Part shown: positions 48,239 to 58,204 of the stretch, piece by piece
Layout: each line of letters starts with the position of its first letter
How positions within the stretch are numbered: position 1 is the stretch's first letter
NCBI GenBank assembly: GCA_017499595.2
Contig: CM038999.1
Span: 4,092,001-4,156,000 of the forward strand
DNA: 64,000 nucleotides
Source: Psilocybe cubensis
Lineage: Eukaryota
Direction of reading: 5' to 3'
The notes under the pieces: generated by a model
What the model was told of the DNA's origin: nothing
Seen by the model: only the letters and a program-made list of their open reading frames with translations
Database searches by the model: none
Program-made: the position numbers and the translations under genes

Positions 48239-49850
48239 CTAAAAAGGTCTACCTGTTGAAGGACCACTAAATAATTGAGCAATTGCATTACCAAAATTTA
48301 AATGAGGTTCAGGCAGCCTCGAAGAAGAATTGGAAGGAAAGGACTGTATAGTGGTGGGTTGTGGGTCGGATGTGACATCGCTAGGGCTGGTAAAAGAGCG
48401 CTCGGAAGGGTGGCTTGAGAAATCTAAGCCTTTATTGGTCCTGAGAGAGTCCATCTCCAGACATTCAGCAATAAATCTATTCACAAGCTTAGCATAACTC
48501 ATTGAGAATACAAGAGAAAACTCGGACTGTTTCAACTCAGCTGTATTATCTCCCAGCTCATCGTCAAGCCTCTTGAGCCATTGATCAACTTTGGACCAAT
48601 AGTCTTCGCCATCAGCCACCCGACCGCGAGTTTTCCCAGCGGGAATGTTTGTTTTTTGCAATTTACGTTTTTGGTAGCAGAATGACCCGAATCGCTAGAG
48701 TTGTCGGTGCTTGGTGTTCCAAAATCCTGGTCATTGTTCTCCTCTTCTGAGTTGTTGTCATCCTTCTCAAGTTCAAAGGCCGAAAACATAGATGAATGGT
48801 CCCAGAAAAACCGCCACTTTACATTGCCACGTTAGTGAAACTTTTTGAATCAGAAATATTGAAGACACACCAATAACACATGTTTTGAGAGGTAAGCTGT
48901 ATTGGAATTTGCACCAGACTCTGACGTAGGCAGACAATATTTCACAATGAGGCCCGCCGCAAATTCTTGCACAGAAGTAAACTTTGGGCCTGGAGTTATG
49001 CTTTGTATGATCTTTAATTTCACACATCAGTACACGGCATATGGTAAACCGGACAACCACACACCTCTTTTCGAAGCGTGTTTCTCTGAATTGTACAAAC
49101 GGTTTGTATATGCGCCATCCATTTGGCCTCACGTCCCAGCCGATTCAGGATGTTGTCAAGGTAATTGTCTGCGGGCTTTTTTTTCATCTTTGCCTGCAAA
49201 TGCATTTGTTTTAGACCGCCAATTAAAGTGAAAAGAACGCACCTCAACATCGATGTGAAGCGTCTTAAAGGACTGTCTAGAGGGCTTTAGAAGCTCTTTG
49301 ATACAGGTTGATTTAATGGCCATCTAAAAGCTGGCTCAGACCACCGTGTTCATAAAGGCAAACAATGACTCACCTTTTGTGCATTTGATAACACAAAGTT
49401 CTCATCTTTTTGCAGCTCATAATCAGCCAAAAAACTGCTCAGCTGCCCGAGTCCTTGTAGATGTGTTTGCGTGGCAGTCAGTGCTTTATGCAGACGAACT
49501 TCGGCCCCAAACTGGCAGGCCAACATCATGATTCGACTTATCACTTCGGTCTAAGGAGGTTGCTCTTCAGGCACGGCTGTACAGATCTGCGGGTTTACGA
49601 GTTAGAAGCAGTTTGATGTAGGCGTTATGTAAAAAACAAGTTTACCTGATAAAGAAAAGTGAGATCTGCACTGTGGTTGCTTGTGAGGTTGAATCGGTGA
49701 ACCAGGTTGTCAATAAACAGCTATGTACCAGTTGGGCGGTCCACGTCACGAGAAACAGGCTGTGATGCAAAAGCTGGGTCAATCGAAGAATGAGACATTG
49801 TGGATTCAGAATCAAGCAAACATCTCTTACCTTGCTTTTATACCCCAAGT
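48239..49850 (-). CDS. Transposon accessory protein, multi-exon, function unknown
   Basis: Exons EVRLHKAL..VLSNAQK / AKMKKKPADNYLDNIL..QRNTLRKE / acidic tract / RGRVADGEDYWSKVDQWLK. Start approximate; a frame break near 48660 is possible. Confidence 0.55.
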
Positions 49851-50096
49851 TTGATTTGCCATGTTTGCCACAACAAACGAATCACATCGCGTTTGAGGTC
49901 AATCAACAATTCGCGTCGCGTTCGAGGTCAATCAACAATTCGCGTCGTGTCACATCAACAACAACAAACCTATGCGTCACATAAAAAGGAGGCGTCAAAG
50001 TTATTCCAAAGGTTTGCTCACCTTTTGTCTCACTCTCTCACTCCCTTAACCATCAGTCTGATATTTGTGTGGTTTCGTTATCTTGAACCGCTCAAC

Positions 50097-56700: not shown

Positions 56701-58204
56701 AAATATAGTCCATACCAAATATTCGTGAAGGGTGTGACAAGTTATACAACAAGTGATCCTTTGACAACTGAATAAAATTCTTTAGCAATTGGCTTTGCGT
56801 GATTTTGATTTCGCGATCTTCGGACACAACCCAACCACTAGGAGTATCTTCCATAAGCCAGGCTTTGGCATAAAATACACCTTCTCGGAGAAACCATTGA
56901 ATAGGAATGCAGCAACGTCCATCAATCAGCATAGTTGGTTCAAAGATGAAAAAATCATTATTATTGAGCCGTATCATTGGAGTACCATCCTCAGGATTGA
57001 TTTCACGCAGCCAACCCGAAGCTTGATAGGTTTCGCTAATCGATTTGCCCGTATCTTCAGGATAGAAGTAAAGGAACGGTCGGACTTGAGGATTAGACAT
57101 TTCCTATTCAGATTGGTTAGAAATCAAAAGTATTCATTTGTAACATATAGATTCATACCTGGGCAAGAATTTGAGACAGAGAATTTACAAAGTATACATT
57201 GCCCAGCTTGCCCTTGTACTCCTTCGTCTCAATTCCACACAAATTCTGCAATGCCTTGTTAATGCCTTGCATAGCCTTAACGCTAGGCACATCGTTGACG
57301 CCATTGATACGCAGTAGCCAGAGAAATAAATCCAGCTGACGACGTGAAAATAGTGATCGTGGAAGGTGCATCAAAACATCAAGAGAACAAGTCTGATTTA
57401 TTGATTGAGCAGAAAATCTAACCGATGGCAGGCAAAGACTCACAATTTTATCAATCCACAGATACCATTTTCGAGCTTCAGCCGGGTCGGTGTGAATACC
57501 GCGCATACGTTTTCGGGGCAAAGATTCATTATCAACTTGTTCAGTGTCTGATTAAAAGTTAAGGACTCAAACAATATGCGCTATTTAGACGTTACACACC
57601 TGAATTGGCTTGCTCATTGCTACTCTCAGAAAGCGGAGGACTGCCACCACCATCATCAGATCCATCACTCTCGTTATTAGAATTTAGAAAATCCAGAGTA
57701 GCTTGACATATTTGGGCAGACGCAAAGTCGATGGGAGATGGATCCGACATAATTTCATCATCGTTGAATAGATTCCAGTCAATCCTGGTGAGTGGAGAGA
57801 CCGTCGACAAAGTGGTTGAAGAAGGTGCAGCCGAGACCCTAGAAAGGCGAGGGTCATTGGCAGGATACAAAGGCTGGTGTGGTTGACGAGATGCAGACAC
57901 AAGAATTGCACGTAAGGCGTCCTCTAACAAAAGGGACTTGTTAACCGGTGGCAACGAGGTTTGTGAAGAAGCAGAGGATTTCTCTTTGGTATGAAATGCC
58001 TGCAGAGCTGTTTGGTGTTTTGTGGTGTTGAAGTGCTCATTGAGGTGGTGTTTTTGGCGACCTTTTGTATCTTGACAGACCCGGCAATAATAGAGTGTTT
58101 GACCGTGTACAACTTGTCGTTGAACGACTATTCTTAATTCAGCCGAGTAGTAAGGTGGACCGAGAGTGATGTCACTAACCAGCAGGGTCAATGCCGAAGA
58201 CCAT
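53790..58204 (-). CDS. CMC(CACTA)/Plavaka-related DDE transposase, multi-exon, with N-terminal C2H2-type zinc finger
   Basis: YYCRVC..H...KH, EMSNPQVRPFLYFYPED, YCDDTSGNQSKKWNKHNS, GDNPMHSEFACH..C..C, DTPVKILH..LLG, LTGRDFR, FNKTKFHIILHL..RRFGP..FATESFESFN, NTQHDC..HGC. Confidence 0.88.

Follow-up and report, generated by a model that had tools for sequence, protein, structure and literature searches.

A TET/JBP Gene and Two Accessory Genes on an ESTA-like DNA Transposon of Psilocybe cubensis

Element Ends, Genomic Copies, and an Empty Site

A DNA transposon of 11,202 bp occupies positions 47256-58457 of the 64,000-nucleotide stretch of Psilocybe cubensis DNA analyzed here (assembly GCA_017499595.2, contig CM038999.1, positions 4,092,001 to 4,156,000; hereafter the window). 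The element holds a TET/JBP dioxygenase gene, a transposase gene, and two accessory genes, A and B, on the strands and at the positions given in Table 1. The original prediction had recognized this four-gene unit at the right place; its coordinates (48239-58204) stand as gene positions, and the true ends, 47256 and 58457, lie outside them.

Genomic copies were sought in 46.6 Mb of sequence on 21 contigs (genome G000). The closest named proteins, at 98% identity, bear the label Psilocybe cubensis. Protein searches with the TET, gene A, and transposase exons each led to the same 11 near-identical places, from which the ten other copies were retrieved; one DNA search recovered just one of these ten, and the protein searches recovered the rest. 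All 11 copies begin with CACAGGCGG and finish with CCGCCGTG, giving CAC..GTG termini, and each is bordered on either side by TA, with unrelated outer flanks. The alignment of genomic copies suggested by the original prediction thus defined both the ends and the target-site duplication. The four genes occur together in 11 of 11 copies, as had been anticipated, and a diverged relative (C4a, described below) keeps the same four in order. Contigs from samples X1 and X2 join position 47253 to 58458, skipping 11,204 bases (11,202 + 2); these samples therefore have an empty site, and insertion duplicated a single TA. The window insertion is recent and of the cut-and-paste type. The X1 and X2 contigs carry only intact-type alleles, as read from contigs, which drop rare variants. 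With regard to expression, sample X4 gave no match to the element and X5 matched just 145 bases of its left end, a result that speaks neither for nor against transcription.

The copies fall into distinct states. Seven, including that in the window, are identical over 11,202 bp, and an eighth differs at 3 sites; this damaged window subfamily accounts for 8 of the 11 copies, versus two intact ones (C3 and C10). The C3 and C10 copies differ from the window-type copies at 128 sites, the intact and TET-broken subfamilies being 99% identical. In the eleventh copy, gene A is interrupted by 7.8 kb of Ty3/Gypsy sequence, and the transposase has a stop. Ty3/Gypsy long terminal repeat (LTR) retrotransposons lie in gene A of both the copy at C5:3315549 and the C4a element, with LTRs 99.8% and 100% identical. 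Look-alikes of the left end (88% over ~56 bp, after TA) were also seen at C9:2768672 and C4:3899274 (L018, L019); they have a 162-bp context in common and no element genes behind them, and in X1 and X2 this junction is also seen as a loose end.

Gene Content and Decay of the Window Copy

Gene models were built by hand with 21 GT-AG introns of 49-64 nucleotides (nt), the first exons of gene A being their least certain part. The C3 and C10 copies keep each of the four frames open at the full lengths listed in Table 1, as expected of autonomous elements. The window copy is broken in every gene. Gene A is interrupted at codons 26 and 63 by stops and near 48667 by a 1-nt deletion; in gene B, the stop is at codon 140 (position 50692). 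The TET gene has stops at codons 6 (51508) and 12 (51588), the latter within a TRSG motif present near the start in 19 of 48 homologs, and also carries P540L, adjoining the distal His. A 1-nt deletion near 56654 ends the transposase at codon 470 under intact-copy splicing, before the first catalytic Asp. The original prediction of a self-contained module therefore fails for this copy itself, whose transposase and accessory frames are broken. Assembly error is an unlikely cause of the lesions, which are shared by 8 copies on four contigs and are mostly CpG transitions.

With the tandem repeat left out, the window type has 83 substitutions of its own, and 74 of them are C>T or G>A. Of these 74 changes, 53 fall at CpG, a context that holds only 20% of C/G sites (p 1e-21). 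Changes specific to the C3 lineage number 10. Between the window and C3 copies, coding differences comprise 48 missense, 21 silent, and 5 nonsense changes. As far as substitution patterns can tell, the CpG-biased decay indicates that the host methylates the element, and we read the window-type history as a period of neutral decay while CpG sites were methylated and, after it, a recent burst.

Table 1. Features of the transposon in the window (aa, amino acids)
Feature	Position	Strand	Remark
TA target-site duplication, left copy	47254..47255		11/11 copies and empty site
Left terminus CACAGGCGG, short imperfect terminal inverted repeat	47256..47264	+	
Gene A, 6 exons, 431 aa when intact	48239..49798	-	no named family
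Gene B, 4 exons, 241 aa when intact	50097..51000	+	
TET/JBP dioxygenase gene, 5 exons, 626 aa when intact	51492..53736	+	
45-nt tandem repeat, Ser/Thr-rich low-confidence linker (predicted local distance difference test, pLDDT, <50)	51860..52444	+	
Catalytic codons H494-x-D496, N499, H547, R558 (P0002 numbering)	53332..53526	+	intact in window
ESTA-like (CMCT) DDE transposase, 10 exons, 1311 aa when intact	53790..58204	-	
Second BAH-like region (candidate), aa 1011-1198	54134..54748	-	71/176 identical to homolog model domain
First BAH-like region (candidate), aa 353-471	56587..56989	-	55/118 identical to homolog model domain
Right terminus, inward reading CACGGCGG	58450..58457	-	
TA target-site duplication, right copy	58458..58459		copies and empty site

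An ESTA-like Transposase

The transposase contains the DDTSGNQSKKWNKH motif pointed out in the original prediction. Its residues D486/487 (window 56542/56539), D573, C592xxC595, H895xxxH899, and E916/919 are assigned as catalytic by motif order alone, and a CxxC..H finger-like motif lies near the N-terminus. The same motif order is given for the CMCT clade in the consulted part of a recent survey (Kojima 2025, PMC12730594), where ESTA elements are described as EnSpm-like, with TA duplications and RAG1-like transposases. The earlier assignment as CMC-like rather than Kyakuja-Dileera-Zisupton (KDZ) is upheld and narrows to ESTA-like: neither the 15 window frames nor the 12 full-length homologs gave a KDZ, Plavaka, or Transposase_21 Pfam match. 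KDZ exons elsewhere in the genome match strongly, and C10 exons match Plavaka at E 3e-9.

Three neighboring superfamilies were considered and rejected. KDZ membership is contradicted by the absence of any PF18758 or CxC match and by a target duplication of 2 bp, not 7-8 bp. For Plavaka, PF18759 is unmatched, and the ends are CAC..GTG, not the TGT..ACA or CATCA..TGATG given for this group in the part of PMC12730594 consulted. For EnSpm/CACTA, PF02992 matches 0 of 12 homologs, DUF4218 reaches only E 0.077, and the duplication is always TA, as opposed to a variable 2-3 bp. Plavaka and EnSpm/CACTA do share the CMCT motifs, have known TET-carrying members, and, in the case of EnSpm-22_AB, have the CACGGCGGG end in common with the window element.

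Structure prediction was carried out on the homolog P0008 (49.6% identical over 1125 columns; mean pLDDT 66.8). RAG1 was the top match of this model (Foldseek E 4.8e-4; VIA Z 10.4, root-mean-square deviation (rmsd) 5.2, 351 residues aligned), with Z 9.9 against BbRAGL and Z 7.5 against HzTransib. PDB sequence searches with the transposase and with TET gave nothing meaningful. The element thus displays the TA duplication, CA..TG termini, D/CxxC/HxxxH/E motifs, and, through the homolog model, the RAG1-like fold of Kojima's ESTA; the transposase appears to fit that group, and on these four features we call it ESTA-like.

Similar elements are on record. Four TET-carrying ESTA listed in the accessible portion of PMC12730594 (ESTA-1_PGr, ESTA-1_PCor, ESTA-3_PCor, and ESTA-12_PHord) show the same TA duplication, CAC..GTG ends, CMCT motifs, and RAG1-like transposase with a TET/JBP gene aboard, at 12-14 kb there versus 11 kb here. 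They differ in being rust elements with a PU-type TET. Among the 50 Data S1 names compared, the only agaric ESTA is ESTA-1_AB, which lacks TET. In the same entries, the CACGGCGG end has the start of ESTA-3_PCor and ESTA-15_PGr, but also that of EnSpm-22_AB.

A lead of a different kind comes from two further regions of the P0008 model (174-320 and 890-1065), which match BAH domains of MET1, TNRC18, ORC1, DNMT1, ZMET2, AIPP3, and ASH1L and correspond to aa 353-471 and 1011-1198, respectively, of the intact window-family protein. The scores, taken from the whole-protein model, are middling (VIA Z 7-9.7, with the named structures at 8.6-9.7; Foldseek E 0.0075-0.03). Pfam BAH has no match in the transposase homologs, and our literature search found no report joining a BAH domain with transposase and CACTA. 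Two BAH-like domains in the transposase are therefore best regarded as a lead from modeling.

A Divergent TET/JBP Dioxygenase

The window dioxygenase matches Pfam Tet_JBP only weakly (23.1 bits, E 4.8e-5; curated cut-off 34.9), as compared with 37.9-72.5 bits for AG-type copies in the same genome. Its HxD..H..R residues are intact, in agreement with the original prediction, with codons at 53332 (H), 53338 (D), 53491 (H), and 53524 (R). The intact-copy protein, P0002, was modeled with confidence at about residues 260-620, and there the model forms a double-stranded beta-helix with a TET-type N-terminal extension. CcTet ranks first (VIA Z 22.8; rmsd 3.9, 280 aligned, 10% identity), followed by NgTET1 (19.2), TET2 (18.1), and CMD1 (13.5), with other dioxygenases at 11.3 or below; Foldseek matched the TET/JBP fold at E 2e-12. 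Unit number in the 45-nt repeat varies among copies (135-nt and 45-nt indels).

Relatives of the enzyme numbered 59 among 1819 candidates, the named ones coming from Agaricales, Boletales, Polyporales, and Russulales, and only 5 of the 59 bore a precomputed Tet_JBP tag. Judged by these sequences, the clade is widespread among agaricomycetes. All 48 aligned homologs keep H494, D496, and N499 and have an aromatic residue at R+6, and 46 of the 48 keep H547 and R558; the N-H-D-N-H-R residue set recurs in 73 of 80 metagenome loci.

The clade was compared with the published TET types. In the part of PMC12730594 consulted, AG-type TET has Gly or Ser at H+5 and Asp at H+11, and PE-type has HxE. AG-type was rejected because the clade has Asn at H+5 (48/48) and Cys at H+11 (47/48), and PE-type because HxD is found in 48/48. 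Three AG-type exons of the same genome form a branch separate from the window-TET clade, and against the clade profile one scored 0.4 bits and two went unreported, as compared with 265-312 bits for clade members. By eye, the PU-type rows compared look unlike the window TET, and PU distribution is in rusts, the host here being an agaric. In the supplement text obtained from PMC12730594, four clade motifs have no occurrence and two others appear only in unrelated context; none of the 50 Agaricomycotina rows compared resembles the clade, and none is an ESTA. According to the accessible text of PMC12730594, Iyer et al. 2014 are said to tie TET to Plavaka in Serpula, Fomitopsis, and Trametes, associations that Kojima could not recover; the window-TET clade may already be in the Iyer et al. 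2014 set.

Among solved enzymes, the nearest are AG-type CcTet structures (PDB 7VPN, 7W5P, 8JKK; on Kyakuja and Zisupton), which are the best structural match and share HxD..H..R and an agaricomycete host; they differ through the 10% identity already given and through Gly331 and Asp337, where the window-family protein has Asn499 and Cys505. Human TET2 and NgTET1 share the fold and the aromatic residue at R+6, and the Asn at H+5 corresponds to TET2 Asn1387. Identity to these two is 11-15%, however, and the window-family protein lacks a His at R+8, is transposon-borne, and has a long repeat linker replacing the metazoan domains.

The H+5 position leads to a substrate prediction. In the portion of PMC11040006 consulted, TET2 Asn1387 bonds N4 of 5-methylcytosine (5mC) and clashes with N6-methyladenine (6mA), CcTet Gly331 permits 6mA, and Asn or Asp at this position bonds 5mC N4 and blocks 6mA in TET2, NgTet1, and CMD1. 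With N499 placed at H+5 by spacing, a 5mC enzyme is predicted. The intact-copy dioxygenase probably oxidizes 5mC; 6mA activity appears unlikely, given Asn where CcTet has Gly331.

Accessory Genes and Related Element Families

Two related families in the genome separate a backbone from a cassette. The C4a family (C4:962844-979654), ~65% identical in DNA to the window family, shares its type of ends, its flanking TA, and the order of all four genes. Its TET is ~60% identical in protein to that of the window family, with catalytic residues kept, a gene B homolog lies upstream of TET (E 8e-5), and its gene A (E 1e-12) is the one interrupted by a retrotransposon. The C4b family, a tandem pair (C4:2274476-2293744), shares the TA and the CAC..GTG ends and contains gene A (E 7e-11) and a transposase; searches of it for TET (E 5.6) and gene B (E 8.3) found neither. 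Gene A persists in the TET-less C4b family, from which B and TET are both missing; this places gene A in the backbone and makes B and TET an added cassette. The idea that both accessory genes are specific to an anti-silencing module does not survive this comparison: gene A also occurs in TET-less relatives, and only gene B travels with TET. One C4b element also contains a frame (L043:8710-9132) matching PF04884 (E 1.8e-6, just below cut-off), possibly a captured host fragment.

Gene A has no Pfam family, and only 2 proteins, both of the same species, matched among 392 candidates. Its Atlas matches are unnamed basidiomycete clusters (0.95), with DUF6532 (0.88) and DUF6698 (0.87) as leads only; both DUFs also adjoin TET genes elsewhere in the genome. 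We infer by analogy that the gene A product may be a transposase partner. Gene B gave generic Atlas matches with a low recognition score; its C-terminal half looks coiled-coil-like, a weak pointer to a coiled-coil-like adaptor co-inherited with TET. Three decayed pieces of gene B homologs lie at C3:1.49-1.51 Mb, with no TET or transposase match in the 30 kb examined there.

TET Genes beside Other Transposases

In the genome TET-exon tree, the two ESTA-borne genes group with 100/100 support with single-copy genes on C10 and C11. The C10 gene lies beside a Plavaka transposase and the C11 gene beside an EnSpm transposase with a CxC5/CxC6 gene 4 kb away; for single-copy genes, these relations are adjacency only. 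The two (C10:1927082 and C11:1289989) are 73% identical in DNA and have different neighboring transposases, and the pair possibly records a transfer between superfamilies. Members of a second TET clade are found chiefly next to CxC2-KDZ transposases, at 6 of 8 scanned loci. Neighbors of the 80 metagenome TET loci included KDZ at 5, Plavaka at 4, and Transposase_21, an rva_4 integrase, and a CxC5-like fragment at one each. An ESTA-like transposase, gene A, and gene B were absent from all 80, most of which are too short to be informative. Movement of the TET clade between transposon superfamilies is suggested, the basis outside the ESTA-like families being adjacency.

Other TET-like genes were encountered along the way. 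A PF12851 search of the genome placed 29 of 43 Tet_JBP matches above cut-off, 21 of the 29 being near-identical 262-aa frames, AG-type where read. A divergent TET-like exon (L183:8656-9063; C3:3234655) has HxDxxD and a long branch and belongs to neither the AG nor the window clade; it scores 20 bits against the clade profile, and 3 kb from it is part of an ESTA-like element. Spt5 NGN/KOW domains are encoded ~5.5 kb from a clade-2 TET gene (L064:2752-3609; C5:3302251).

Proposed Mechanism and Alternatives

We propose that the element is an ESTA-like (CMCT clade) cut-and-paste transposon with a backbone of transposase and gene A and a cassette of gene B and TET. The anatomy is close to certain, and the mechanism as a whole is, in our estimate, probable. 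In intact copies, the RAG1-like transposase would bind the CAC(A)GGCGG ends, excise the element, and insert it at TA, with the gene A product acting as its partner protein. Two-gene CACTA elements provide the analogy for this partner role. The Fe(II)/2-oxoglutarate dioxygenase would oxidize 5mC, not 6mA, in methylated repeats, which would loosen the silencing of transposase genes in trans, beyond its own copy. The window subfamily would have been methylated for long, lost its genes through CpG deamination, and recently been multiplied to 8 copies by proteins of intact C3/C10-type copies. Mobilization in trans is likely; the balance tips just slightly toward an anti-silencing benefit from TET. 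A parallel exists in VANDAL/VANC (as cited in PMC12730594 and in the Bostrychia preprint 10.1101/2025.02.11.637652), where a transposon-encoded factor is thought to counter DNA methylation; VANC is described as sequence-specific, whereas the window-family factor is a predicted enzyme of another family.

Several observations weigh against this proposal. Copies with a broken TET form the largest subfamily, and spread therefore does not depend on an intact TET in cis, which fits either action in trans or little benefit. Oxidized 5mC on Laccaria transposons is linked to silencing, not activation, in the part of PMC8889193 consulted. At the position equivalent by spacing to TET2 His1904 and CcTet Arg393, 30 of 48 homologs have Ala and 9 have Ser, and with so small a residue base recognition would differ from that of the studied enzymes. 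The partner role of gene A is drawn by analogy. In the window transposase, none of 32 substitutions is nonsense, versus 5 of 42 in the other three genes, and an alternative 3' splice site (AAG, 7 nt upstream) would reopen the frame to 1313 aa.

The transposase observations could mean that the window subfamily is itself autonomous, splicing transposase intron 4 at this AAG and spreading without TET, A, or B. The reopened frame leaves the D, CxxC, HxxxH, and E residues unchanged, and the subfamily is the most amplified. The resulting intron would, however, be 42 nt long, below the 49-64 nt of the 21 modeled introns, and the splicing alters residues within the first BAH-like region. The transposase substitutions (23 missense, 9 silent) show no sign of purifying selection, and gene A is broken, though it is kept in all three related families examined. 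Autonomy of the window subfamily is unlikely. That TET and gene B are neutral passengers of no benefit to the element is also decidedly improbable. A similar family that lacks TET has multiplied in the genome (the C4b tandem pair and C3x), and the broken-TET subfamily spread best, but cassette order is kept in two families ~65% identical in DNA with TET catalytic residues retained, and members of this TET clade are also found next to several other types of transposase. Chance adjacency, or a nested TET insertion beside an unrelated transposase, is vanishingly improbable: in 11 of 11 copies one and the same pair of ends encloses the four genes, none of these genes is present at the empty site, and among the 25 longest inverted-repeat pairs shown none bounds the B-TET part.

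More doubt attaches to the substrate. The dioxygenase could have a different target, either thymine (the JBP substrate) or a base in RNA, or could form a CMD1-like adduct; alternatively, its oxidized marks could reinforce silencing. In favor of another substrate are the 10-15% identity to each solved TET and the small residue discussed above, and in the text consulted of PMC12730594 Kojima leaves other activities open for divergent types; reinforcement of silencing would agree with Laccaria, where oxidized 5mC on transposons accompanies silenced genes in the data consulted from PMC8889193. An invariant Asn at the cytosine-N4-bonding position of TET2, the aromatic residue at R+6 in all 48 homologs, and the host methylation indicated by CpG-biased decay argue for 5mC oxidation instead, and we regard these other outcomes as doubtful, though deserving some weight.

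Other Structures in the Window

Several repeat structures accompany the transposon. A large foldback at 40089-44943 has several arm pairs 72-98% complementary, and foldback elements at 30861-33101 and 5365-6875 have arms of 421 nt and 543 nt at 98-99%. The C5b copy has, just to its left, a 70%-identical piece of the 30861-33101 foldback. At 15281-17417, 3497-5221, and 18658-19129, short terminal inverted repeats (31-55 nt) are accompanied by subterminal repeats, as in miniature inverted-repeat transposable elements or CACTA.

Significance

TET genes on fungal DNA transposons have already been published, and their function has not been experimentally validated according to the portion of PMC12730594 consulted. 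The present combination, an ESTA-like TET-carrying element in an agaric with this predicted TET type, is absent from the rows of the PMC12730594 supplement compared. It supplies a ready comparison in a cultivable mushroom: intact versus TET-broken subfamilies, a TET-less sister family, and presence/absence sites between samples. It also brings forward a widespread enzyme clade, only 10-15% identical to any solved TET, whose predicted substrate (5mC, not 6mA) can be tested. Should the BAH-like folds in this RAG1-related transposase prove real, they would tie transposase targeting to histone marks.

A broader joint claim is tentative and, taken as a whole, rather unlikely: that the clade is a fourth, TET2-like class of TET/JBP 5mC oxidase (HxDxxN..GWC..GGLFR), missed by surveys because it falls below the Pfam cut-off, that it moved among ESTA, KDZ, Plavaka, and EnSpm, and that ESTA transposases carry two BAH chromatin-reader domains. 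If this is true, an intact element would both read heterochromatin marks and erase DNA methylation, and damaged copies would exploit both activities in trans.

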